This document shows, in pieces, positions 10,267 through 24,670 of a stretch of DNA of 44,876 nucleotides. Position numbers and translations under genes: made by a program. How positions within the stretch are numbered: the stretch's first letter is position 1; the number at the start of each line of letters is the position of its first letter. Under the pieces are notes generated by a model, which ran no database searches, had not been told where the DNA came from, and worked only from the letters and a program-made list of their open reading frames with translations. Source of the DNA: Escherichia phage Haito_Bas83; sequence record PQ850604.1. The stretch is one strand, 5' to 3'.

Positions 10267-10992
10267 ATGGGTTATCAACTTCCTAACGGGTCTAGCGTCC
10301 AGATTGGGTCCGTACTGGGCGACGGCATCGCTGTTACGGCAGCTACCAACGCCACCGCGTCGATCTCTGACCTCGCTACCGGTTGCGTTATTACCTGCGC
10401 GGAATCTCATGGTCTGGTTGTTGGTGATGTGGTTATGTTCACTAAAACCCCGTGGGTCCGTGCGCTAAACCGCGCGTTTATCGTTGGCGCAGTGTCTACC
10501 AACGATGTGACGCTGGCGCGCTTCGACTCCTCGGACGTCACCAAATATCCTACCGGTGCTTTTGCAGTAGGCACTCCGGGTGAAGTGGTGAAGGTGTCGA
10601 GCTTTATCGACTTCCCGTTTATCACCAACGTTGCCGTGTCGGGTGGCGACCAGCAGACGACTACCTTCCAGCCGTTGCAGGTTAACACCGCGATCAGCCT
10701 GAACACCACGAAAAACCCGTTGGTCCAGACTTACACCTTCACCCACGACGAAGAAGACCCGATCCGCCCAATCCTGGAAGACCTGGACGACACGCAGAAG
10801 ACCACCGTGATCAAGTTCACTAACCCAGCGGCAGCAAGCGGCAAAGGTGAAATTCGTATTTACCCGGCTAAGGTATCTTTCCAGAAGATTCCGTCCGCTG
10901 AAGTAAACAACGTTGAAACGGTACAATCCACTCTGACCATGCAGTCTGATATGGTTATCTACCGTAAGGATCTGGTCGAGGCATTGTCTTGA
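10267..10992 (+). CDS. major tail (tube) protein
   Basis: 241-aa ORF with RBS AGGAGC; directly upstream of the chaperone G/GT pair and tape measure; followed by a terminator. Confidence 0.6.
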   Translation: MGYQLPNGSSVQIGSVLGDGIAVTAATNATASISDLATGCVITCAESHGLVVGDVVMFTKTPWVRALNRAFIVGAVSTNDVTLARFDSSDVTKYPTGAFAVGTPGEVVKVSSFIDFPFITNVAVSGGDQQTTTFQPLQVNTAISLNTTKNPLVQTYTFTHDEEDPIRPILEDLDDTQKTTVIKFTNPAAASGKGEIRIYPAKVSFQKIPSAEVNNVETVQSTLTMQSDMVIYRKDLVEALS

Positions 10993-12133: not shown

Positions 12134-14779
12134 ATGGCAGATCAAGCAGCAGGCATCACGCTAAAGGCGGATGTTGCACAAATCAGAACGGCGAATACGG
12201 TGCTGGACTCATTCGCGCAGAAGTCCGAGAACACCGAAAACAAGGTTAAGAAATTAAACGACACACTCGGCAACACGAAAAAGGTGACGGGTGACGCCGC
12301 GGGCGGAATGGGGAAGCTGGCAACTGAATCGCAGCGCGCCGCAGATGGCATGACGAAGCAGGAGCGACTTGCCAACCGCTTAGGCATGTCGACTAAAAAC
12401 CTGGGCTTTGCCTCACGTAACGCCGCATTTCAGTTACAGGATATTGCGGTCACGCTAGAGATGGGTATGCCGGTGCACCGCGTCATGATTCAGCAGTTAC
12501 CGCAGTTAACCGGGGCATTCGGAGGACTGGGTAATACGCTGCGTTATGTTGCTGGCTTTCTCGGTCCGGTAGGGATCGGCCTTGCTGCGGTAACGGCGAC
12601 GTTAGGTGTAGGCGTGGCGATTACGTCCCGCGCAGAAAACCAGGTAGCGGCGCTGAATAAGACGCTGGCGCTATCCGGTAATATCTCTGGCCTCACCGCT
12701 AACCAGATCCTGGTGCTGTCGGAGAACGCCGAACGCATGGGCGGGTCATTCAGCAAGACGCGTGACACAATTCAGGCACTGGCGGCAGCAGGTGTGAAAG
12801 CGGGTGCTGACTTCGGCGCACTGGCGAAAGTGGTGAACGACTTCGCGAAGGTGTCTAATCAGCCGATCGCGGACGTGGTGGAGTCCATCTCCAAATTGTC
12901 CAACGACCCGGTGGGCGGATTGCGCGCACTGGCGGACAAGTATCACGTCGTTACCGAGGCGCAGATCCAGCAGGTGCAATCCCTGGTGACGACGGGCCGC
13001 GAAACCGAAGCGGTGGCGTTGGCTAACAAAACAGCCGCGGCGTCGTTCACCAGCATGACCAACGAGATCAAGTCCAACATGGGTACGCTTGAGCGGTCAA
13101 TGAACGTCGTCACATCGGCAGCCAAATCTATGTGGGATGCCATCCTGGATGTGGGCCGCGCGCAGTCCTCGAATGAGTCCGAGATGAAAGCGCGTGAATC
13201 TTTGCAGCGCATGACAACGGCCTACTATGCCGAGATGAAAGCGGTAAACGCTGCCGGTGGGGTAATGACCGAGGCGCAGAAAGCACGAATTAACATGCTT
13301 TATAGCGAACTGGTCGCCCAGGAGAAAGTAGTAGCGTCACTCACCCTGCGCAACCGTGCTGAGCGTGACAACGCAAGCGCCGCGGACAAATCAGCGAAGG
13401 CGAACGAGGAGGCCAACCGCACCGCCCGCGACCGCGCCGCGTTCGAGAAGGAATTTGCCACCAACGCGCAGAAGCGCGCCGACGAGATCGCCCGCCTCAA
13501 TTTGCTGAATAAGCGCGGTGTGATTAACGAGAAAGAACTAGCCGAGGCGGTGAAGCAGGTCAACGAGCGCTACAAAGACCCCGCACCGAAGAAGGCGGCG
13601 GCTATTCGCGTGGATGCTGGTGTCAAAATGCTGGAGGTCGCACGGAGCGAACTGGCGCAGCTTAAGGAGTCCGGCAAGCAGATCGAGGCCAATGCGACAA
13701 CGCAGACCCGCACGCAGCGCGCACAGGCCGCGTTGAATAAGCTGGTGGCGGATAATGAGCAGATGGTCACAGCAAGCAAGGAGCGCACACTAACGGCAGC
13801 AGAAAAGCAGCAGATGGCGGAGTTCGAGGCGGTTAAAGCAGTACGCGAGCAGATCGTCGAAGAAGCCAAGTTGCTGGACGCGAAAGAGAAGCAGATCAAG
13901 GCACACGCCCAGGTCGAGGCATTCATCAAGAACCAGAACGCTGAGCTAAGGGCCACCGCTGCGGGCTATGCGCTTTCCACTCGCGAAGCGGCTAACCTGC
14001 GCGAAGAATTACAGCTAATTGACCGCCTTCAGCGTGTCGGCGCTAACGATACTGATATTGACAACGCGGTGTCTAAGCTGCGCGAAGTGCAGGAAGCACA
14101 GACCGGTGCTAACGCCTCGTTGTGGGATGGCTTCAGCCGCGGGCTTAAGGATAGCGTGGATGAAATGGGTAACGGCTACACGCAGATGACGTCACTCACA
14201 AAATTCACGTTCGGCGCTATGCAGGACACGATGAACAAGTTTTTCGAGACGGGCAAGCTGAGCGCGAAGGATATGGTTAAGTCCATCCTGAGCGAATTAA
14301 TCAAGCTGGCTACCTCGCAGGCGTTCAAATCCATCGTTAGCGCTTTCGGCGGTGACGGCGGCAAAAACGGATTGTTCGGCGCTATCTTCTCGGGCCTCAC
14401 TAAGAACGCAGACGGCGGAGCGTACGCAGGAGGCAATCTAGCGGCCTATTCCGGGCAAGTGGTAAGCCAGCCTACCTTTTTCAGTTATGGCGTTCAGGCG
14501 TTCGCTAAGGGCGCTGGATTGATGGGTGAGGCCGGACCCGAGGCCATCATGCCACTGAAGCGCGGGCCGGACGGGAAACTGGGCGTTGCCGCTGCCGGTG
14601 TTGGAGGGGGTGGGATGATTGTAACGACCAACGTGAACATGGGGACCGGTAAAACGGACACCAGTGTGAGCGGACCGGACCCACGCACCGCGCAGGCGTT
14701 CGGCAAGCAAATCACCGAGTCGGTCAAGGCTGAGATCGTGAAAGCGACGAAACCGGGTGGAGTACTTTACAAACGATGA
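12134..14779 (+). CDS. tail tape measure protein
   Basis: 881-aa helix-rich ORF downstream of G/GT with a Gly-rich C-terminal region; canonical position. Confidence 0.8.
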   Translation: MADQAAGITLKADVAQIRTANTVLDSFAQKSENTENKVKKLNDTLGNTKKVTGDAAGGMGKLATESQRAADGMTKQERLANRLGMSTKNLGFASRNAAFQLQDIAVTLEMGMPVHRVMIQQLPQLTGAFGGLGNTLRYVAGFLGPVGIGLAAVTATLGVGVAITSRAENQVAALNKTLALSGNISGLTANQILVLSENAERMGGSFSKTRDTIQALAAAGVKAGADFGALAKVVNDFAKVSNQPIADVVESISKLSNDPVGGLRALADKYHVVTEAQIQQVQSLVTTGRETEAVALANKTAAASFTSMTNEIKSNMGTLERSMNVVTSAAKSMWDAILDVGRAQSSNESEMKARESLQRMTTAYYAEMKAVNAAGGVMTEAQKARINMLYSELVAQEKVVASLTLRNRAERDNASAADKSAKANEEANRTARDRAAFEKEFATNAQKRADEIARLNLLNKRGVINEKELAEAVKQVNERYKDPAPKKAAAIRVDAGVKMLEVARSELAQLKESGKQIEANATTQTRTQRAQAALNKLVADNEQMVTASKERTLTAAEKQQMAEFEAVKAVREQIVEEAKLLDAKEKQIKAHAQVEAFIKNQNAELRATAAGYALSTREAANLREELQLIDRLQRVGANDTDIDNAVSKLREVQEAQTGANASLWDGFSRGLKDSVDEMGNGYTQMTSLTKFTFGAMQDTMNKFFETGKLSAKDMVKSILSELIKLATSQAFKSIVSAFGGDGGKNGLFGAIFSGLTKNADGGAYAGGNLAAYSGQVVSQPTFFSYGVQAFAKGAGLMGEAGPEAIMPLKRGPDGKLGVAAAGVGGGGMIVTTNVNMGTGKTDTSVSGPDPRTAQAFGKQITESVKAEIVKATKPGGVLYKR

Positions 14780-14786
14780 TAAAATG

Positions 14787-14815
14787 GCCCTCACATACAA
14801 CGTGGGGGCTTTTTT
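14787..14815 (+). terminator. terminator-like hairpin abutting the next start codon
   Basis: GCCCTCAC-ATACAAC-GTGGGGGC plus TTTTTT, immediately followed by ATG 14816; the 3' arm GGGGG doubles as the RBS. Confidence 0.45.
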
Positions 14816-15415
14816 ATGGCGCAAGGTACAATCACACTAACGAACGGAAGTAAGACCGTCACGGGCGCGGGGACGGCGTTCCTGAGCGAGATCGGGAAGG
14901 TCCGCGTATTTGCCCGCATCGACGGCAACGACTACACCGGTAAAATCGCTGCATTCAACTCTGACACCGTCATCACCCTGGTGGATAACTGGGCCGGTCC
15001 GACAAAAGCCGGTGCAGCCTACGAGCTAATCGAAGCGCACGACCCGCGATCAAACGAATGGCCCTATTACTGGCACATGCAATTGCAGGGCGGCGGCGAC
15101 GTGCAATTGGCTTTCCGGTCGGAGGAATTGCAATTCGGTAACGGCTATGGTCAGAACATCGCAGACGGCCCGAACGCCGAGACGAAACAGTTCCCCGTGC
15201 AATTCATCGGACTGACTACGGACAAGTGGTGTGACCCTAAACTGGTGTACAACTTCCTTCGCGGGCACTTCGTCAAGCCGTTTGTCGTCACCGCGCCGGA
15301 TGGCGAAACAGGTTTATTCGTGGTCGAGCGTTCGAGCTTGTCGTACACTGACAACGGACACTACACGGCAACTGTATCAGCCACCCTTAAGACTGCTATT
15401 GGATTCGTAAGATGA
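14816..15415 (+). CDS. minor tail protein (lambda M position; distal tail protein candidate)
   Basis: 199 aa, first gene after the tape measure; N-terminus MAQGTITLTNGSKTVTGAGTAF matches the N-terminus of the side fiber at 22292. Confidence 0.45.
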   Translation: MAQGTITLTNGSKTVTGAGTAFLSEIGKVRVFARIDGNDYTGKIAAFNSDTVITLVDNWAGPTKAGAAYELIEAHDPRSNEWPYYWHMQLQGGGDVQLAFRSEELQFGNGYGQNIADGPNAETKQFPVQFIGLTTDKWCDPKLVYNFLRGHFVKPFVVTAPDGETGLFVVERSSLSYTDNGHYTATVSATLKTAIGFVR

Positions 15416-16200
15416 ATAAACTATATCGCGAGGCGACGCGCTTTGACCCATCGGGCCGCGTTCGCCTGATTCACATTGACGCGCAGGACGTGGAGCCGGG
15501 CGACGGCGCGATCGGCGCGGGCCACCACTATTTTCATTACTGCTTTATTCCGCATACTGCCGAAGATATTGCTGCCGCTGGTGGAGACGAGGACAAGCTG
15601 AAGCCAAAATCTATCTTCTTTGGCGGGCAGGAGTTCGAATTTTGGCCCTTCGATTTGTCCGGCCTCAACTTCTCCACATCAACGGCAGCAGAACCGCAGC
15701 TAACTATCGTCGATATTGGCGGGATTATTACCCGGCTATCGCTGAATCACGACCAGCTACTTGGCGCGAAGGTTGAAATCATAGACACGTTTGCTAAGTT
15801 CCTGGACAACGGGCCAGATCCAGACCCAACGCAAAAACGTGTACAGGAGTTTTACATCGACTCCCAGGTGGGCCGAAATCCGGGCAAACAAATCACCTTC
15901 GCATTATCCTCGCCCGCGGATATGGAGGGGCAAGTAGTCCCGCGCCGCCAAATCATGAACATGTGCGAATGGGCGCTCAATGGGAAGTACGCCAGCGGGG
16001 ACGGGTGCACGTGGAACCTTGCACAGCCAGGCATCAAGTATTATGACGAGCGCGGTAATGAAGTCATCGCGATGGATATGGACCGGTGCGGCGGCTGTTT
16101 GTCCGACTGTTATCTTCGATTTGGACAAGGGCTTGCAGATCCGAAAGCGGCGGTACTGGACTACGGCGGCTTTCCGGGGTCCAGATTAATTAAGGGGTAG
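15412..16200 (+). CDS. minor tail protein L-like
   Basis: 262 aa; C-terminal cysteine cluster CGGCLSDC consistent with the Fe-S site of lambda gpL-family proteins; gene order M-L-K-I-J. Confidence 0.6.
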   Translation: MNKLYREATRFDPSGRVRLIHIDAQDVEPGDGAIGAGHHYFHYCFIPHTAEDIAAAGGDEDKLKPKSIFFGGQEFEFWPFDLSGLNFSTSTAAEPQLTIVDIGGIITRLSLNHDQLLGAKVEIIDTFAKFLDNGPDPDPTQKRVQEFYIDSQVGRNPGKQITFALSSPADMEGQVVPRRQIMNMCEWALNGKYASGDGCTWNLAQPGIKYYDERGNEVIAMDMDRCGGCLSDCYLRFGQGLADPKAAVLDYGGFPGSRLIKG

Positions 16201-16202
16201 TC

Positions 16203-16943
16203 ATGTTAACGAAAAAGGTTAAGAGCGATATCGCCGCACACGTTGCGGCATGTCTGCCTGAAGAAGCGTGCGGCCTGGTCGTCATGGTGGGCCGTAAGCA
16301 AGTATTTATCCCGTGCCTGAACGTGTTCGAAGACCCGACCGGCGCGCGATCGCGTAAGGACGCGTTTACAATTAGTGATATGGCATGGATGGGCGCCGAG
16401 GATATTGGCGACGTCGTGCGCGTAGTCCACTCACATCCAGGTCAGCGGGAGTTAACCCCATCATTGGGCGACGTTAACGGATGCAACGGCAGCGGCATAG
16501 TGTGGACCATTACTAACGAGTACGGCGACTTTATCGAGATCGACCCTGAAGACCCACCACTGGTAGGTCGCCGATTTGTTCTCGGAATTACGGATTGCTA
16601 TGGCCTCGTCATGGACTGGCACAAAAAGCAGGGCGTGAATCTGCCTGACTTCCGCGTGCCGTACAACTGGTGGGAGATGGGCGAAAGCCTGTACATGGAT
16701 AACTGGTATGATGCGGGATTCAGGGAGTGCGCGGAGAATACGCCGGGGGCAATGGTCATCATGCAGATTAGCGCACCAGTGCCAAACCATGCTGGGATCT
16801 TCCTTCCGGGCAACCAACTACTACACCATATCTACGGCAGCCTGTCGAGCGTGGTCCCCTTCCGGGCAGGATTTTTCCGCGACAATGTGGTTAAATGGGT
16901 ACGTCATAAAGACTTACCTGGGGAAATCACAGAATGGCAATGA
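16203..16943 (+). CDS. tail assembly protein K-like (MPN/JAMM + NlpC/P60)
   Basis: HSHPGQRELTPSLGD JAMM-like motif and a downstream Cys/His region (DCYGLV, HAGIF); position before I and J. Confidence 0.65.
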   Translation: MLTKKVKSDIAAHVAACLPEEACGLVVMVGRKQVFIPCLNVFEDPTGARSRKDAFTISDMAWMGAEDIGDVVRVVHSHPGQRELTPSLGDVNGCNGSGIVWTITNEYGDFIEIDPEDPPLVGRRFVLGITDCYGLVMDWHKKQGVNLPDFRVPYNWWEMGESLYMDNWYDAGFRECAENTPGAMVIMQISAPVPNHAGIFLPGNQLLHHIYGSLSSVVPFRAGFFRDNVVKWVRHKDLPGEITEWQ

Positions 16944-17551
16944 CCACATTTAAATTGTACGGCGTCTTAGGACGTCGTTTTGGTAAAGTGCATAAGCTGG
17001 ACTGCTTCACACCTGGCGAGGGTATCACCGGCCTATGCGTGAAGTTGCCAGGCTTACAGGACTTTCTAATGTCGGCCCACCTGGAAAACATGATGTTCAA
17101 GGTGCGCAAGGGTAATCACACAATGACCGGCTACGACGAGTTGGGTGAGTTCCACGGCGACCGCGTAGTTACCATCGCGCCGGTTATGACTGGTGCTAAA
17201 AGCGGACTTGGACAATTGCTGGCTGGCGTAGCTATCGTGGTGGCGTCGTTCTACACTGGCGGGCTTGCCGCTGCCGCTTTCGGGGCTTCCGCTGCGACCG
17301 CCGCCGCTATCGGAACGGCGACGTTTTCGTTCGGTATGTCGCTTGCGCTGGGCGGCGCTATGCAATTGCTGTCACCGCAACCGAAAGGATTGCAGACACG
17401 GCAGGACGTGGATAACAAGGCGTCGTATGCGTTCGGCGGGCCGGTAAACACGACCGCGCAAGGCACAGCACTTGGTGTATTATGGGGAGAGCGTGAGATC
17501 GGCGGCGCTATTATTTCAGCCGGAATTGTAACCGAGGATTTGAACGAATGA
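16934..17551 (+). CDS. tail assembly protein I-like
   Basis: 205 aa with a Gly/Ala-rich hydrophobic segment; overlaps K and J as in lambda. Confidence 0.55.
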   Translation: MAMTTFKLYGVLGRRFGKVHKLDCFTPGEGITGLCVKLPGLQDFLMSAHLENMMFKVRKGNHTMTGYDELGEFHGDRVVTIAPVMTGAKSGLGQLLAGVAIVVASFYTGGLAAAAFGASAATAAAIGTATFSFGMSLALGGAMQLLSPQPKGLQTRQDVDNKASYAFGGPVNTTAQGTALGVLWGEREIGGAIISAGIVTEDLNE

Positions 17552-20500
17552 CGATTATCTACGACGTCACGGGCCATAAAGGCGGCGGTGGCAAACAGCA
17601 CACCCCACAGGAGACGCCTGATAGCCTGCATTCGCTGGCTAAAATCCGCATCTTGCTCGCACTGGGCGAGGGCGAATTTGAAGGCATTCCCGACCCTAAC
17701 GAATTACGGCAGCGTGTATACCTGGACGGCACACCGATCCAGAACGCCGACCTGTCGGATAACTTCCCCGGCGCGCGCGTGGAGTTCCGCCCCGGCACGC
17801 AGCACCAGGATGTGATTCACGGTTTTTCAGCGGTGGAAAGCGAGCAAACAGTAGGCGTAAAACTGGAACAGGGACAGCCGTGGGTCCGCCAGATTTCGGA
17901 CACCAGTCTGGACGCGGTGCGTATTCGAATCGGTATTCCGGCCCTGTACACTAACGAAGATAATGGCGACCTGGTGGGCGGGCGCATCGACTATAAAATC
18001 GTTGTGTATACCGATAACGCCGATCCGCGCGAGTTTACATTCGCTGCCGTTGGTAAAACAATGTCGCTGTACGAGCGGGACCACCGCATCGAATTACCGC
18101 CGAACGTTAACACCGGCTGGCGCGTGGAGGTGCACCGCACAACGGCAGACTCCACATCGGCGAAAGTGGTCAACGATATCCAGGTACAATCCATTACTGA
18201 GATTATCGACGCCCGCCTGCGTTACCCGCTAACCGCGCTGTTGTTCGTGGAGTTCGATGCTAAGGCGTTCCAGAACATCCCGCGTGTGTCCATCAAGTGC
18301 AAAGGCCGCAAAGTGCTAGTACCGAACAACTATGACCCCGTGAATCATACCTATTCTGGTAACTGGGACGGCACATTTAAACGCGCCTGGACGGATAACC
18401 CGGCATGGCACTGGTACGATATTTGTATTACTGAGCGCTTCGGCCTCGGTCGTCGTGTCAAGCCACAAATGCTAAACCGTTACGCGCTCTACCAGATTGC
18501 GCAGCGCTGCGATCAGATGGTCAGTGACGGCAACGGCGGACAAGAAATCCGCTTTAAGAATGATATGTACATTCAGTCGCAGACCGACGCCTGGACCGTG
18601 CTGAAGGATTTAGCGGCAATCTTTGCCGGTATGACCTGGTGGGGCAACCAGATGTTGAATATCGTCAGTGACCAGCCGGTCGCCGCGGTATCGCATACTA
18701 TCACCAACGCCTCGGTTATTGATGGTCGATTCGACTACGCATCGGGGAGCCAGAAAACTCGGTATTCCACGTTCTCGGTAGCCTACGGCAACCCGAAAAA
18801 CCATTACGAGGACGCCATCGCAACGGGCCAGCGTGTCGAACTGGTGCGCCGCCATAAGATTAACCGCCTTGATATCACGGCGATCGGCTGTACGCGTGAA
18901 TCTGAAGCGCAACGCCGCGGGCACTGGGCGCTAATCTCCAACCAGCTTGACCAACAAGTTAGCTTCAAGGTTGGCATGGAGGGGTTATTCTTTATTCCGG
19001 GGAGCGTAGTTGCGATCGCAGATACTAACATTTCTGGCGGCTTCGAGACACGCGGCGGACGTCTGTTGTCTGACCCGGGCACGCGCACCGTGCTGAACAC
19101 AGACAGCGAAATCACGTTCCGCCCTGGTGATAAATTCCTGGTGCGCACCAATAGCGGTAATGTGGAGACTCGCGAGATTGCCAGCGTCAACGGCAACCAG
19201 GTCACACTAAAAACCGCACTGGACGCCGACCCTATTCCAGACCAGCCGTTTTGCGTGGATGGCGATGATATCCAGTTGCAGAAGTTCCGCATCACCGACC
19301 TGGAATATGACGACGCTACCAGCACTTTTTCGGTGCGCGGGATTGAGTACAACGATAGCAAATATGATGCCGTTGATAATGGCGCGCGTCTTGATCCGGG
19401 TATATTCACGCAAGTGCCAGACGGCGTAATGAAGGGACCGGAATCCGTGACCATCACCCCGTCGCAGATTTCATCACAAGGCCAGCTAATCACTAACGTG
19501 GATATTGTATTCCCACCGGTGAAGGATGCCGTTGTGTACGAAATCCAGTGGCGACGTACCAGCTTGCAGAATCTGGAAGTACAGTGGGGCAACGACTGGG
19601 TGAACATCCCCCGCACGGCGTCGAACGGCGCGCACATCCCGAACGTGTTTTCGGGTAACTACCAGGCACGCGTCCGCGCTATCGGTATGGGCGAGATTTC
19701 ATCCCCGTGGGTGTCATCCGCCATCACGCCGGTGGAGGGTCGTCTTGGTGGGCTTAACGCGCCTATCATCACCAACGCGATTTCGGGCCTTCACCAAATT
19801 TTGTGGAAGTGGAACCACAACAACGCCGCGACGGATATTTCGTATACCGAGCTTGAAGTGCGCAAGCTGGGAGAAACGGAATGGAAATTCCTAACCAACG
19901 TCCCATATCCTGGGTCGGACTATGCACAAACGTCGCTGGAGTTCGGGATCTATCAGCAGTTGCGCGCGCGTGTAGCGGATAAAATCGGCAACCTGTCAGA
20001 CTGGTCCGATCCGTTCGACGGGCAGGTGAGTGACAAAGTTGACGAGTACATGCAGGGGCTTGATGACGAGTTCTTGACTTCCGAGGACGGTAAACACTTC
20101 CAGGAAGCAATCGACACCATTCCGCAAGGCATCTATGAGTCAATGCTTACGGACGCCCAGCAGTTATTCAACGCCCGCGCCGAGTATAAAGGGATTTATG
20201 CGGAAATTACGGTGGCGTATAACGTGGCGGCGGATGCTCACGAAGCCGTAGCGCAACTGGAGACGTTGATCGGCACGCGCCTTGACGATGCGGAAGCGTC
20301 AATCCACACGTTGCAGACAGCGCAAAGCACGCATGAGCAAGCATTCGCCCAGTACCAACAAACTGTTGCCGCTAAGTTCGGGGAGCAGGAAGCTGCCATC
20401 CAGCAGGTACAAACGGCAACGGCAGACGTAGCTGGCGCGCTGGCGGAGTATAAGACCCAGGTCGCGGCACAGTTCGGACAGCAGTCCGCAGCTATCGAGC

Positions 20501-20994
20501 AGAAGATGACGTCTTCGTTTAACCATGCTGGCGGTAGCGCCACCTACAGCCTAAAAGCTGGCGTGACGTATAACGGGACTTACTATGATGCCGGTATGCA
20601 GCTTTCAGTTGTGGCGGAAGGTGGCGCGGTTAAATCCCGCATCGCGTTCAAGGCGGACCAGTTCTACATCATGCACCCGTCAAATGGGTCGCTTTCGTCC
20701 GCGTTCATCGTTGACGGCGGGCAGGTGTATATCGACACGGCACGCATCAAGAACGCGTCCATTAACTTCGCGCAGATCACGGACACGCTGCAATCCAATA
20801 ACTGGAATCCGGGTAACAGCGGCTGGCGTATCGCGAAGGATGGCGGGGCAGAGTTCAACAACGTTACGGTACGCGGCAACCTGTACGCAAATACGGGTAA
20901 CTTCGGATTCTCCGGCGGGTCAGTGACTATTGACGCAACGGGCGTCAACGTGCCATTACCTGGAGGGGGCAGGGTGAAAGTCGGAACGTGGTAA
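17548..20994 (+). CDS. central tail fiber / host specificity protein J-like
   Basis: 1148-aa ORF at the end of the M-L-K-I-J series; size and position match lambda J. Confidence 0.8.
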   Translation: MTIIYDVTGHKGGGGKQHTPQETPDSLHSLAKIRILLALGEGEFEGIPDPNELRQRVYLDGTPIQNADLSDNFPGARVEFRPGTQHQDVIHGFSAVESEQTVGVKLEQGQPWVRQISDTSLDAVRIRIGIPALYTNEDNGDLVGGRIDYKIVVYTDNADPREFTFAAVGKTMSLYERDHRIELPPNVNTGWRVEVHRTTADSTSAKVVNDIQVQSITEIIDARLRYPLTALLFVEFDAKAFQNIPRVSIKCKGRKVLVPNNYDPVNHTYSGNWDGTFKRAWTDNPAWHWYDICITERFGLGRRVKPQMLNRYALYQIAQRCDQMVSDGNGGQEIRFKNDMYIQSQTDAWTVLKDLAAIFAGMTWWGNQMLNIVSDQPVAAVSHTITNASVIDGRFDYASGSQKTRYSTFSVAYGNPKNHYEDAIATGQRVELVRRHKINRLDITAIGCTRESEAQRRGHWALISNQLDQQVSFKVGMEGLFFIPGSVVAIADTNISGGFETRGGRLLSDPGTRTVLNTDSEITFRPGDKFLVRTNSGNVETREIASVNGNQVTLKTALDADPIPDQPFCVDGDDIQLQKFRITDLEYDDATSTFSVRGIEYNDSKYDAVDNGARLDPGIFTQVPDGVMKGPESVTITPSQISSQGQLITNVDIVFPPVKDAVVYEIQWRRTSLQNLEVQWGNDWVNIPRTASNGAHIPNVFSGNYQARVRAIGMGEISSPWVSSAITPVEGRLGGLNAPIITNAISGLHQILWKWNHNNAATDISYTELEVRKLGETEWKFLTNVPYPGSDYAQTSLEFGIYQQLRARVADKIGNLSDWSDPFDGQVSDKVDEYMQGLDDEFLTSEDGKHFQEAIDTIPQGIYESMLTDAQQLFNARAEYKGIYAEITVAYNVAADAHEAVAQLETLIGTRLDDAEASIHTLQTAQSTHEQAFAQYQQTVAAKFGEQEAAIQQVQTATADVAGALAEYKTQVAAQFGQQSAAIEQKMTSSFNHAGGSATYSLKAGVTYNGTYYDAGMQLSVVAEGGAVKSRIAFKADQFYIMHPSNGSLSSAFIVDGGQVYIDTARIKNASINFAQITDTLQSNNWNPGNSGWRIAKDGGAEFNNVTVRGNLYANTGNFGFSGGSVTIDATGVNVPLPGGGRVKVGTW

Positions 20995-21002
20995 ATGCGA
21001 AG

Positions 21003-21024
21003 GGGCCAGATGGCCCCTTTTTTA
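21003..21024. terminator. rho-independent terminator after J
   Basis: GGGGCC-AGAT-GGCCCC plus TTTTTT; the convergent minus-strand gene ends at 21022. Confidence 0.6.
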
Positions 21025-21987
21025 ATAGATGTTAGGGATGACTAATAGCGGGGTGGGTACGGCAATATTTTTGCCCGGCATTTGGAATTGCTGCCGTGAG
21101 TAGTTGCCAATAACGCGGTTTTTAGCGATGCGCACATTATTACCCGCCATTCGTATCCCGTTCATGCGCACATGGTTATAGCCTCCGTTGTTCTCAATGA
21201 GCGCACCGGTATATGAAAGCTGGATCAGACTATTACCGATGTGCTGGTCGCCGCCACCGATATTAATCGTTCGGTCGTAGACAAACGGCTTGTTTACCGT
21301 CGAGAACGTGACCTGCCCCTGGTTGTTAGTCATGGTGATACCGGTCCCCGGTGAGGGCGGCGTATTGTTGAATATGACCAGGTCCATATCAACGGCAGCG
21401 CCTACGTCGTCAATCCCGCCATAGGACGCATTACGGACAATGATACTTCCGCCATCGAAGCCAACCGATACGTTGCCGTCGTCCCAGCGCGCGAACGGGA
21501 CACCGCCGACTGGTAGCGGCATACTTCCGTTTACATGCACGCGCTGCGCATATCGGCACGTCATTAGCCGTGATACGTTGGATATGGCGGTGAAGTCCGT
21601 TGAGTTAGCCACCAGTAAGCCCGCATTGCGTGACCCCACCGGCAGCACTTCCATAATCACCCCGCCCCATGTTGGAAGCCCGCTGTATGCGTTATAGGCG
21701 TCCTCACCGCGCAAGGTGATTCCGCCATCCCCGTTACGTTGTATCGACGTCACATAAAACGGGTCTGGCAAGACCAGGGTCTGGTCGAATACCTCAATCA
21801 CTTCAACCGGATTAGTTAGGGCAACGACCAGTTCGGACCCTGGTGTCAGCGGTGTGTTAATGGACAGCGTCTTGTCAGACTGACAGCGCTGATTAAAGGT
21901 AGTGCAAAACGACGGAGCGCGAAGGCCCGCGGTTATCTCCATGACAGGTCTACCGTCGTTGTAGTCGATTAATATTCCGGCACCCAT
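21022..21987 (-). CDS. putative receptor-binding protein (opposite strand, downstream of J)
   Basis: 321 aa from ATG 21987 (RBS GGGAGTGG); Gly/Asn-rich with repetitive strand-like segments; translationally coupled to the upstream lipoprotein gene; location matches separately encoded RBP loci of siphoviruses. Confidence 0.35.
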   Translation of the reverse strand: MGAGILIDYNDGRPVMEITAGLRAPSFCTTFNQRCQSDKTLSINTPLTPGSELVVALTNPVEVIEVFDQTLVLPDPFYVTSIQRNGDGGITLRGEDAYNAYSGLPTWGGVIMEVLPVGSRNAGLLVANSTDFTAISNVSRLMTCRYAQRVHVNGSMPLPVGGVPFARWDDGNVSVGFDGGSIIVRNASYGGIDDVGAAVDMDLVIFNNTPPSPGTGITMTNNQGQVTFSTVNKPFVYDRTINIGGGDQHIGNSLIQLSYTGALIENNGGYNHVRMNGIRMAGNNVRIAKNRVIGNYSRQQFQMPGKNIAVPTPLLVIPNIY

Positions 21988-21989
21988 TA

Positions 21990-22211
21990 TTACCACTCCC
22001 GTGATTTAACTGATACAGTACCGGAAAAATTGCCGTCGCTATCGGCAGACAGGCCAGTGAAGCGCATGTCAACATCTCCGGCAGGGACTTTTTGCCCGTC
22101 AACGTAACGCAACATGCAGCTTCCGTAAGCCACCGTAATGCAATCACCGTTGTTGCGTTCTACAGCACAACCGGACAAAAGGACCGCACAAATCATAATT
22201 AAAGTTTTCAT
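21990..22211 (-). CDS. small lipoprotein, superinfection-exclusion candidate (Cor/Llp-like)
   Basis: Start at 22211 with RBS AGGAG; signal peptide MKTLIMICAVLLSGC with lipobox LSGC; 73 aa; adjacent to receptor-binding genes. Confidence 0.5.
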   Translation of the reverse strand: MKTLIMICAVLLSGCAVERNNGDCITVAYGSCMLRYVDGQKVPAGDVDMRFTGLSADSDGNFSGTVSVKSREW

Positions 22212-22291
22212 GTTATCATCTCCTATATTTGGTTGAGTTTTAGTATTACACCGCTCAACCAAGAATGCAACCAATTTATGAGGATTCAGCT

Positions 22292-24070
22292 ATGGCAGCG
22301 GGTACACTATCCGTAACGAATAACAGCAAGGCGGTTGTGGGCGTCGGCACAACGCTTACCGCGCTGAAGGCTGGCGACTTCCTGTCGCTGGTAGTGGGGC
22401 AAGTCCCTTACACTGTCGCTATTGCATCCGTAGAAAGCGACACCGCGCTTACGCTGGTGCTGCCGTTCGATGGCCCAACGGCAACCGGCCTCGCATGGGA
22501 TAGCGTGGCGCGCGATACCATGTCCCTTGCAACGATGGGTGTAACCGTCCAGGCGCAGAAAGCGCTCCGTATGCTTATCGCGGACGAAAACAACTGGCGT
22601 GCAATCTTCGGCGACGCTGAGGAGATCACTGTCACGCTCCCGAACGGGCAAGTAATGCAGGGTATGTCATGGGGCTATCTGTCGCAATTGCTCAAGCAAG
22701 TTGACCCCGTAGAGATGCGCAACCTGCAACAACAAGCCGCCGCATCGGAAGCCGCCGCGCAGGGATACCGGAACGAGGCAGAAGGCTTCAAGACTGATAC
22801 GCAGGCGATCCACGACGCCACCGATCAGATTAAGACTGATACGCAGGCGATCCACGACGCCACCAACACCATCAAGACGCAGACCAACCAGATTAAGACT
22901 GATACGCAGGCCATCAAGGACGAGACTGACCAGATTAAGACGGATACTGGCGCTATTCGCGATCAGGCCAATACAGCGAAGACGGACGCGCAAGCCGCCC
23001 GTGATGCCGCGCGGGGATACCGGAACGAGGCCGAACAATTCAAGAATGAGATCGACCCGTCGAAATTGCTGGCAAAGGCCAGCAACCTTAGCGACGTTGC
23101 AGACGTTGCAGAAGCGCGCGACAACTTAGGTATCGGGCCGACGGATACACTTAATATTGGTGGCCTGGTAACGTCCGGCGGTATCTCCGCGGGTCGAAAC
23201 ACGTGGGACGGGTCAAACTGGGGTGGCCAGGCGATTAACATCTCGCTAGCCATCCTATCACCAGACGGAAACTCAACACCCGGCTTATATGTGCGCAAAA
23301 GCAACGGCGAAAACGGATATGCGACTGAATGGCTGTATTATGAGAACACGAACGCCTGGGCGACGAACGCGCGAGTTGTCAGCTATCAATTCCGTTCCCC
23401 GAAGGGGCCTATGGGTTATAGTCAGTTGTGGTCTGAAGCTGCGGTACGAGTGGACCCGTACAACGGGCAGCTTAACGCGGAAAACTATCAGTCGTTAGTC
23501 GCGGGGGCGGCTGCGACGCAAGGCCACGGATTTGCGGGCGGTGTTTCGTTCGGGCTTATGACCACCGGCAGCAACAACTGGCCCCGGGCGCAGATCTCGA
23601 TCGGCACACAGGACCGTGACGCCGCGGGGAATATGGGGCAGCAGATGCATTTTCGCTTTGATGACCAGGGGCGGATCTCTTACAACGGGCCGCAAGGCAC
23701 GGGGTCATTCCAGCAAGTGCCCGCATCGGACCGCAACCTGAAGCATGATATTGCCGATGATGCCAGCAGCACCGCCTACGACAACATCAAGGCGATGCGA
23801 TTCCGCACGTTCATATTCAACAACGACGAACAAGAACGGCAGCGCCGCGGGATTATTGCGCAGGAAGTGGAAGAAATCGACCCGCTGTATGTGAAGCACC
23901 GAGAGTATAACAACCATGAGTTAAACGGGCCATTGATGCACCAGCTTGAACTGGACACAACGCCGCTGCTACTCGACACTATGCGCGCGTTGCAGGATAC
24001 GATTAAGCAGGTGGAGGAGTTGAAGGCCGAGATCGCAGCTATGAAACAAGTGGAGGAGTTGAAGAAATAA
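22292..24070 (+). CDS. side tail fiber with C-terminal intramolecular chaperone (peptidase S74-like) domain
   Basis: Start MAAGTLSVTN with RBS GAGGA (track ORF starts 27 nt earlier); tandem 14-aa repeats (TDTQAIHDATDQIK); C-terminal ...SDRNLKHDIAD...MRFRTFIFNNDEQERQRRGIIAQEVEEIDPLYV... resembles the autocleaving chaperone domain of endosialidase and T5 L-shaped fibers. Confidence 0.7.
   Translation: MAAGTLSVTNNSKAVVGVGTTLTALKAGDFLSLVVGQVPYTVAIASVESDTALTLVLPFDGPTATGLAWDSVARDTMSLATMGVTVQAQKALRMLIADENNWRAIFGDAEEITVTLPNGQVMQGMSWGYLSQLLKQVDPVEMRNLQQQAAASEAAAQGYRNEAEGFKTDTQAIHDATDQIKTDTQAIHDATNTIKTQTNQIKTDTQAIKDETDQIKTDTGAIRDQANTAKTDAQAARDAARGYRNEAEQFKNEIDPSKLLAKASNLSDVADVAEARDNLGIGPTDTLNIGGLVTSGGISAGRNTWDGSNWGGQAINISLAILSPDGNSTPGLYVRKSNGENGYATEWLYYENTNAWATNARVVSYQFRSPKGPMGYSQLWSEAAVRVDPYNGQLNAENYQSLVAGAAATQGHGFAGGVSFGLMTTGSNNWPRAQISIGTQDRDAAGNMGQQMHFRFDDQGRISYNGPQGTGSFQQVPASDRNLKHDIADDASSTAYDNIKAMRFRTFIFNNDEQERQRRGIIAQEVEEIDPLYVKHREYNNHELNGPLMHQLELDTTPLLLDTMRALQDTIKQVEELKAEIAAMKQVEELKK
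22791..22979 (+). repeat. in-frame tandem ~42-bp repeats within the fiber gene
   Basis: AAGACTGATACGCAGGCGATCCACGACGCCACC... repeated about four times with variation. Confidence 0.6.
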
Positions 24071-24074
24071 GAGA

Positions 24075-24096
24075 GGGGCCATACGGCCCCTTTTTT
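24075..24096. terminator. rho-independent terminator after fiber gene
   Basis: GGGGCC-ATAC-GGCCCC plus TTTTTT. Confidence 0.6.
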
Positions 24097-24670
24097 AGTT
24101 TGAGTTTTCCCAGTCCATTTTACGCCGCACTAGCGGGCTTTCGTAATATTCCTTACCTTCTACTTCCACCAGGGGCCAATCGTTAACAATTACGTATGGC
24201 TCCGCAATATCCTCAATCACGCCGTGCGCGCTATGTTGCCCGAACGATACGCCCACCAGGATGACACCGGCAACTCGACGGGTTAGATACTCGCGAGCGC
24301 AACGGGCCTCGACCAGTCCTCGACGGATGCCGCTGGTGGCTTTGACCTCGTAGGTCCAGACGGCATCAATCATGTGCTCACGGAAGTCGGGGCCGGACTT
24401 AACCTTGCGTTTACCAACCATGATAATATCGCCGCGGTCGATAGTATTGGCGCTAAACAGGCCGGTACGCATAAGTAAGCCTTGCGGGATACAACTACGC
24501 CCGCCTGCCTGCCCTTCAAGGTACATGCCTGCAAACATCTCGCCCAGCACACCGACAAGTCGGCTTTGCTTGCACGCGTCAGACTTTAAGCGCCACTGGT
24601 CAAACTCGACGCTTGCTAACATTGCCGCGATGTGGAATTGTTTACCGGTTATTTCATATTCGCCATACAT
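24095..24670 (-). CDS. hypothetical protein, possible PD-(D/E)xK-type nuclease fold
   Basis: 191 aa; RBS GAGGAC; weak motif GDIIMVG...TYEVKAT only. Confidence 0.4.
   Translation of the reverse strand: MYGEYEITGKQFHIAAMLASVEFDQWRLKSDACKQSRLVGVLGEMFAGMYLEGQAGGRSCIPQGLLMRTGLFSANTIDRGDIIMVGKRKVKSGPDFREHMIDAVWTYEVKATSGIRRGLVEARCAREYLTRRVAGVILVGVSFGQHSAHGVIEDIAEPYVIVNDWPLVEVEGKEYYESPLVRRKMDWENSN

Follow-up and report, generated by a model that had tools for sequence, protein, structure and literature searches.

Why do two different structural proteins of one phage tail begin with much the same residues? The stretch of DNA considered here (44,876 nucleotides of Escherichia phage Haito_Bas83, PQ850604.1; hereafter the window) encodes a siphophage tail in which the distal tail protein (DTP) and the lateral fibre have similar N-termini. 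An earlier note had put the resemblance at about 11 residues in 20, and had suggested that it marks a common docking interface or an exchange of modules. The comparisons described below demonstrate that the DTP and the fibre share a true homologous domain, a whole β-barrel of ~72 residues and not a 20-residue motif alone. On balance, and with no great confidence, we favour the view that the DTP barrel is an optional and exchangeable decoration of the tail ring, recruited from the family of fibre anchors, and is not the dock of the fibre. The features of the locus are collected in Table 1.

Table 1. Tail genes, domains and signals of the window, with the alternative cassette of two metagenomic contigs.
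Feature	Coordinates	Strand	Basis or remark
Tape measure protein	12134-14779	+	
Terminator-like hairpin, between tape measure and DTP genes	14786-14810	+	Pattern scan: 9-pair stem with 6 G-C pairs, then TTTTT
gpM-type distal tail protein (DTP)	14816-15415	+	
DTP residues 1-72, six-stranded β-barrel paralogous to the fibre anchor domain	14816-15031	+	
DTP residues 73-85, low-confidence linker from barrel to ring domain	15032-15070	+	AlphaFold2 pLDDT ~59; residues 76-78 <50
DTP residues 86-199 and stop, gpM-type core, tail-tube fold	15071-15415	+	
gpL-type hub	15412-16200	+	PF05100, 3.6e-36; PDB 23gd_C
gpK-type JAB + NlpC/P60 protein	16203-16943	+	
gpI-type protein	16934-17551	+	
gpJ-type central fibre/hub	17548-20994	+	Pfam FNIII-A_GpJ, Phage-tail_3, Phage_Tail_Tip; PDB 23gd_D
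DUF6453 receptor-binding protein	21022-21987	-	
Small lipoprotein	21990-22211	-	
Lateral fibre	22292-24070	+	
Fibre residues 1-72, β-barrel anchor domain	22292-22507	+	
Fibre residues 74-135, stem helix (74-105) and β-hairpin (112-124)	22511-22696	+	AlphaFold2; with the barrel makes up the conserved anchor module
Fibre residues 138-256, 17-heptad coiled coil	22703-23059	+	Heptad register read directly
Fibre residues ~261-478, distal shaft and T5 pb1-like receptor-binding tip	23072-23725	+	Boundaries approximate
Fibre residues 479-592 and stop, S74 intramolecular chaperone	23726-24070	+	PF13884
Bidirectional intrinsic terminator closing the fibre gene	24068-24097	both	13-pair stem, T-run on +, mirror site on -
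Alternative DTP-L cassette	L003 10001-11609; L004 5772-7380		Compared with window 14816-16200

The N-terminal strings of the two proteins are identical at 12 of 22 residues, in agreement with the earlier count, and the similarity reaches well past them. Over residues 1-72, BLASTP finds 29 of 73 positions identical (40%), with an E value of 2e-9 using composition-based statistics. Both segments are rich in Gly, Thr, Ala and Val, and the original comparison covered only some 20 residues, both of which would speak for compositional chance. Against this, the Smith-Waterman score of the pair is 113, compared with 26.5 ± 4.9 for 5000 shuffles (maximum 58), giving a z score of 17.6, and residues 23-75 alone, with the first 22 dropped, still give z 12.4. 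The profile matches are reciprocal: a profile built from 15 divergent fibre N-termini matches the DTP copy in the PDB (23gd_B) with E 2.5e-15, PHROG fibre families match DTP residues 1-72 at 1e-14 to 2e-19, and the DTP family in turn matches the fibre. AlphaFold2 places six strands at equal positions in both N-termini: residues 4-8, 14-18, 30-35, 38-47, 52-55 and 64-72 in the DTP, and 5-8, 14-18, 30-35, 38-47, 52-55 and 64-72 in the fibre, the latter with pLDDT 85-91. We therefore give next to no credence to a chance similarity.

Pfam has no family for this barrel. A word-indexed protein search with the 81-residue DTP N-terminus returned one candidate and no relatives, and an exhaustive profile search was used instead. 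This gave a family of 3519 clusters at E ≤ 1e-3, nearly always with the barrel at the start of a phage fibre; in most of the top 150 of these it occupies residues 1-75 of proteins of 250-900 residues. Its solved sequence relatives are solely the Dhillonvirus DTP and the side fibre of the F2 pyocin (25ve, 25vj), whose N-domain 25ve_A is matched with E 4.5e-5 by a profile of both window barrels and with E 8.1e-6 by the fibre-family profile. The structural neighbours are small barrels, among them the N-domains of tailspikes and depolymerases, the crown domains of F1/V1-ATPases, a domain of lambda gpJ, a domain of the phage Chi DTP, and T5 pb9; the best are barrels of the OB or ATPase-crown kind and tailspike N-domains. 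None of these is significant alone, the matches to T5 pb9 and the Chi DTP domain being weak at Foldseek E 0.05-0.2. The barrel is an autonomous module that is used beyond fibre N-termini too, because a group of giant metagenomic proteins (P0011-P0014, P0024, P0037 and P0043; 1000-2900 residues) carries 4-13 tandem barrels interleaved with PKD domains, P0014 having NHL repeats as well. These giant proteins also show a weak summed similarity to PF05354, the family of the lambda gpFII head-tail attachment protein. Within the window, there is no third barrel besides those of the DTP and the fibre.

In the DTP, the barrel is one of two domains. The AlphaFold2 model has the linker leading directly into a gpM fold, and PF05939, the gpM-type DTP family, matches residues 86-187 (44.1 bits against a cut-off of 39); this core has the tail-tube fold. 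The stem helix and hairpin that follow the barrel in the fibre are absent from the DTP copy, and without the stem helix and a trimeric shaft the DTP is not classed as a fibre anchor. The solved Dhillonvirus protein gp20 (23gd_B, 199 residues) aligns with the window DTP from end to end (E 1.2e-130), and the chain name of 23gd_B suggests that the DTP would form a hexameric ring between tube and hub. The fusion of barrel and DTP is confined to Dhillonvirus, with 165 phage records matching over the full length, whereas ~950 other siphophage records match residues 84-191 only. The DTP barrel, which other gpM-type DTPs do not have, is thus a member of the fibre-anchor family, and therefore domain shuffling is supported; to this extent the proposed exchange of modules was well founded.

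The exchange need not have been old, and it could be argued that the DTP N-terminus is a fresh and functionless copy of part of the fibre gene of the same phage. In favour of this, the two genes belong to a single tail operon, mosaicism is high among fibre genes, and fibres of 538-893 residues share a barrel that is ~90% identical. However, the DTP barrel is only 36-40% identical to the barrel of its own fibre, which is below its identity to the barrels of some unrelated fibres (42-49%), and the fusion is found at no less than 80% identity in ~157 phage records. The ratio of nonsynonymous to synonymous substitution rates (dN/dS) is 0.10 for the DTP barrel, compared with 0.03 for the DTP core, 0.11 for the fibre barrel and 0.07 for the fibre stem (residues 74-135). 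The DTP barrel is under purifying selection, and over the long term, which makes a recent recombination very improbable.

The fibre has the organisation of a modular lateral fibre: the barrel starts at residue 1 and is followed by the stem helix (74-105) and then by a coiled coil. The stem helix is basic, and helix and hairpin are conserved in 14 divergent fibre families. An upstream start at the ATG at 22265 was ruled out: the start codon at 22292 has GAGGA as a Shine-Dalgarno sequence 7 nucleotides before it, and over 100 families have the domain from residue 1 onwards. In a set of 16 related fibres (538-893 residues), barrel and stem are ~90% conserved and the distal parts vary. A tandem array of 14-residue repeats had been described at 22791-22979. 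The array is real at the protein level, being a heptad coiled coil with a 14-residue super-repeat: residues 166-242 (nucleotides 22787-23017) hold ~5.5 units of the type IKTDTQAIHDATDQ, with one half unit of 7 residues interrupting, all within the unbroken run of 17 heptads. In the DNA, a 42-bp unit is recovered by Tandem Repeats Finder in no more than 2.2 copies (22788-22878). Arrays of a similar kind are present in the 16 related fibres. A comparison of copy number among relatives, which had been proposed together with the array, shows that most of the 16 keep a coiled coil of similar length, a minority having another type of repeat or one 14-residue unit fewer.

Beyond the coiled coil, PHROG fibre families match fibre residues 328-592 and 366-592, and the L-shaped T5-like fibre 8hqz_d matches residues 427-585 (E 1.1e-10). 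It is worth adding that residues 254-296 (window 23051-23179) contain the short motif SKLLAKASNLSDVADVAEARDNLGIG, similar to a sequence that is repeated several times in the short tail fibre gp92 of 9zd7 (E 0.0068 for the best repeat), and seems to be a common motif of fibre junctions. As described for Gp29 of the closely related phage Bas85 (PMC11990801), that protein begins with an anchor, continues as an elongated coiled coil up to a T5-like tip, and ends in an intramolecular chaperone; it uses the O16 O-antigen as a facultative first receptor in order to cross the glycan barrier. Both fibres have coding sequences of 592 codons' worth of protein (592 residues), the locus is 98.8% identical in DNA, and nothing material differs between them.

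The C-terminus of the fibre had been described as S74-like, with a likely cleavage site near SDRNLK, and the profile comparison bears this out. PF13884 (Peptidase_S74) matches residues 479-534 with E 1.9e-11, covering positions 1-57 of the 58 in the profile; the score, 44.5 bits, exceeds the cut-off of 22. SDRNLK corresponds to residues 479-484 (nucleotides 23726-23743), its serine opens the Pfam match, and the Ser479/Lys484 dyad (Ser-x4-Lys) stands at the start of the domain. Of 17 related full-length fibres, with those of the window and Bas85 counted in, 11 have the motif S[DE]xxxK. The spacing is that of the Ser1264/Lys1269 dyad of T5 pb1, which cuts between residues 1263 and 1264, and whose uncleaved chaperone masks the O-antigen site until cleavage (PMC4690869). 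By analogy, the chaperone would be released by its own cleavage at Ser479 after folding of the tip, and the mature fibre would end at Ala478.

If the fibre barrel is an anchor, what does it hold on to? The clearest guide comes from the F-type pyocins, for which three independent cryo-electron microscopy (cryo-EM) studies show that the N-domain of the side fibre binds the coiled coil of the central fibre (PMC13455828; PMC12874032; bioRxiv 2026.02.24.707460). There, the N-domain (residues 2-76) fixes three trimeric side fibres to the central-fibre shaft, and the stem helix contributes to the attachment (PMC13455828). The window J matches the F2-pyocin central fibre 25vf_A with E 7.5e-225; its C-terminal 308 residues match 25vf_A residues 977-1184 (E 3.6e-18), and its residues ~841-990 (nucleotides 20068-20517) form an α-helical shaft. 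Because the fibre barrel is homologous to that of the pyocin side fibre, and J is homologous to the central fibre and has an α-helical shaft, the J shaft is a candidate docking site for the side fibre, and the fibre barrel and stem most likely clamp onto it. A transfer of the pyocin attachment site to J at the level of residues was dropped, the kink at ~950-956 being outside the aligned region.

Natural variants of the locus bear directly on the part played by the DTP copy. The contigs compared are metagenomic: L003 and L004 carry an alternative DTP-L cassette (cassette B), and L002 and L020 are undecorated. Outside the cassette, L003 and L004 are ~87% identical to the window in DNA, and their tail proteins are closely similar to those of the window (tube 95%, tape measure 92%, K 95%, I 96%, J hub 97%, J shaft 95%, receptor-binding protein 94%, fibre anchor 89-95%). 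Their DTP is a 123-residue allele without a barrel, with a core that is 64% identical to that of the window. Short DTP alleles start in the linker, at a WPYW motif. The DNA identity to the swap contigs is 87.6% as far as the start codon of the DTP gene (window 14819). The cassette-B contigs then lack the barrel segment (window 14820-15058), and over window 15059-15569, which holds the DTP core and ~55 codons at the start of L, the identity to L003 is 67.8%. A 470-nucleotide insertion in gpL follows, and from window 15586 the identity is back to 86.7%. The breakpoints of the cassette are thus at window 14819, the DTP start codon, and 15586, at L codon ~58. The gpL of cassette B has 415 residues, with an insertion of ~155 residues after residue ~57 that weakly matches residues 497-617 of the 'Megatron' hub protein of roseophage R4C (E 1.6e-4).

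L002 and L020 are more distant relatives that have a bare DTP, a plain L and a fibre with the barrel. In the DNA fetched for L002, L003, L004 and L020, there is no further copy of the barrel besides that of the fibre. The decoration of the tube-tip junction therefore has three states, namely a barrel on the DTP, an insertion in L, or neither, and the fibre anchor is constant across all of them. Barrel-less DTPs occur together with a retained fibre anchor, and therefore fibre attachment would not depend on the DTP copy. The suggestion of a common docking interface is thus not supported, even though that of module exchange stood up. As a separate observation on L020, its J is longer (12498-16340; 1280 residues) with a C-terminal extension of its own, which looks like an alternative carrier of the terminal receptor-binding function, there being no DUF6453 receptor-binding gene. 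Its fibre, at 377 residues, has both the barrel and an S74-type C-terminus.

These variants are also the main evidence on a different arrangement, in which the DTP barrels and the fibre barrels co-assemble in one mixed ring at the junction of tube and tip, with the DTP copy nucleating or completing the dock. For example, three fibre trimers giving two barrels apiece, together with the six barrels of the DTP, would make up a collar of 12 members, comparable to the Ur-lambda Stf and T5 p132 collars. The geometry is attractive, in that twelve-membered collars ring the DTP region in both lambda and T5, and in that the DTP barrel emerges just where the lambda collar meets gpM, the N-terminus of which (K2, W6) is contacted by the Stf collar (PMC12617516). 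Moreover, the DTP extensions of Sf11 and monocin dock fibres or spikes, and both barrels are conserved (dN/dS 0.10 and 0.11). However, L003 and L004 keep the fibre anchor at 89-95% identity in a tail that is 92-97% identical and yet have no DTP barrel, L002 and L020 do likewise, and the DTP copy has no stem helix, which aids attachment in the pyocin. The deposited tip structure 23gd has no fibre in it. The most divergent DTP barrel (L015, 79%) pairs with an ordinary fibre barrel and so shows no sign of co-variation, though the conservation of both barrels across the 16 Dhillonvirus loci is too high for a meaningful test. We regard a mixed collar, including the 6 + 6 form just described, as unlikely. 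A more specific proposal can be made along the same lines, that the ring has its own copy of the fibre anchor built in, as the DTP barrel, so that a 6 + 6 mixed collar pre-pays half of the docking ring and sets the number of fibres per virion, with the cassette-B phages using the gpL insertion instead. This we think quite improbable.

We return, then, to the DTP barrel as a decoration that is not the fibre's dock. One autonomous barrel of ~72 residues would do different jobs in the two proteins. In the fibre, the barrel and the basic stem helix would together make up the virion-attachment module of a trimeric fibre that targets O-antigen. In the DTP, the barrel, with no stem helix, is joined through a flexible linker of ~12 residues to the N-terminal end of a ring subunit of gpM type, and, judging from lambda, six such tethered barrels would form peripheral knobs outside the tube-tip junction. 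The DTP barrel is lineage-specific and maintained by selection, and yet would be dispensable; it is part of a swappable DTP-L cassette of which the alternative form combines a bare DTP with an inserted domain in gpL. It would function as the accessory domain of an 'evolved DTP', probably for contact with the cell surface or for stabilisation of the junction, as may be compared with the OB domain of T5 pb9.

Several points weigh against this proposal. A role for the DTP barrel at the cell surface is a prediction, and glycan binding is unsupported. The extensions of DTPs often dock fibres or spikes, as in Sf11 and monocin, and a helper role in docking stays plausible. The AlphaFold2 model of the DTP is moderately confident (pLDDT 74, pTM 0.50). 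The cassette-B and undecorated genomes are metagenomic contigs, whose fibre mounting is predicted from their genes. As for the docking of the fibre on the J shaft, this is by analogy only: the part of the pyocin central fibre that aligns with J begins just C-terminal of the attachment kink (~950-956), and 23gd includes no chain for the fibre.

It is useful to set the locus beside the systems that it most resembles. In the F-type pyocin (PyoF13/PA0643/PA0646; 25ve, 25vj), as in the window, the N-domain forms the very start of a trimeric side fibre, and the tail is lambda-like with a J homologue that has a coiled-coil shaft. The pyocin differs in having a plain DTP, in stem regions that do not align with those of the window fibre, and in the use of separate chaperones where the window fibre has a C-terminal S74 domain; and its shaft attachment has been shown by cryo-EM, whereas that of the window fibre is predicted by homology. 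T5 pb1 resembles the window fibre in having a T5-like tip upstream of an S74 domain. It is, however, much longer (1396 residues compared with 592), T5 anchors it through a separate p132 collar whereas the window fibre has its own N-terminal barrel, and its cleavage is established whereas that of the window fibre is predicted from the S74 motif. In Ur-lambda, small N-terminal β-domains of Stf with linkers of ~10 residues form a collar around the gpV/gpM junction and touch the N-terminus of gpM (PMC12617516). The lambda Stf domain is Ig-like, with a six-strand sheet and a helix, where that of the window is a six-stranded barrel, and the lambda DTP is bare where that of the window carries a barrel. 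No lambda Stf chain was among the PDB matches of the window DTP, fibre or barrel profiles, and the window barrel is thus not assigned to the StfN collar domains.

The closest parallels for the DTP are the decorated DTPs (the OB domain of T5 pb9, the Chi DTP, Sf11 gp17 and LSH1 gp24), in which a ring subunit of tail-tube fold carries an extra peripheral domain. The window DTP likewise carries an extra autonomous domain on its ring subunit, and its nearest alleles are without it. It differs from these examples in that the extra domain is N-terminal and homologous to the anchor of the phage's own fibre. The architecture of the fibre was already known from Bas85 Gp29, and a structure of a near-identical DTP has been deposited. 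In the literature searched, which included the accessible part of the Bas85 Gp29 paper (PMC11990801), we found no description of a relation between the DTP N-domain and the anchor of the fibre or of the pyocin side fibre, and the literature searched likewise held nothing on alternative DTP-L cassettes. The homology of the DTP to an anchor and the alternative cassettes are modest additions to what is known of decorated DTPs and modular fibre anchors, and not a new kind of system.

For small lambda-like siphophages, the question of how the tail holds its side fibres is only now being answered; the three known modes of attachment are the lambda Stf collar, the T5 p132 collar and the central-fibre shaft of the F pyocins. 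The locus ties a very large family of fibre anchors to the pyocin structures, and adds that the same barrel has also been recruited as a decoration of the DTP. The swapped DTP-L cassettes provide ready-made genetic controls in three states, with which the role of the decoration can be tested, and they could be used for engineering of host range in the Dhillonvirus phages of a public collection (BASEL).

The surroundings of these genes are those of a Dhillonvirus. The 9.3-kb region from the DTP to the fibre is 98.8% identical in DNA to that of Escherichia phage RuthEpting (Bas85), a Dhillonvirus, and many other Dhillonvirus genomes are at least 89% identical to it. The order of the tail genes is of the lambda/T1 type. 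Solved structures of close relatives cover nearly all parts of the tail, comprising the tube (10lj, 10xw) and, in the Dhillonvirus tail tip 23gd, gp20, gp21 and gp24, the latter two matching the window L and J. Near-identical proteins have also been solved for the receptor-binding protein (9rpt, 9rpw, 9rqi) and for the lipoprotein (9rps). The genes of these two lie between J and the fibre on the strand opposite to the tail operon, and the Bas85 counterpart of the DUF6453 receptor-binding protein is annotated merely as 'membrane protein; moron'. A preprint reportedly describes a small siphophage that binds an open state of the LptDE translocon, and we take 9rpt, 9rpw, 9rqi and 9rps to be the proteins of that preprint.

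The DTP gene starts 37 nucleotides past the tape measure stop, and the T-run of the hairpin in this interval abuts the DTP ATG. The hairpin could attenuate transcription or alter translation of the tip genes, and it may be the cause of upstream mis-starts (DTP forms of 212 and 218 residues) in some database entries. At the other end, the strong terminator overlaps the stop codon of the fibre and parts the tail operon from the converging genes of the minus strand. Finally, a minority of PF08813 tail tubes are cross-linked by inter-ring disulfides, according to a 2026 paper, and a network of this kind is reported for T1. The L002 tail tube is recorded as PF08813, and the major tail tube protein of the window (10267-10992) has two cysteines, C40 and C44, in the sequence GCVITC.

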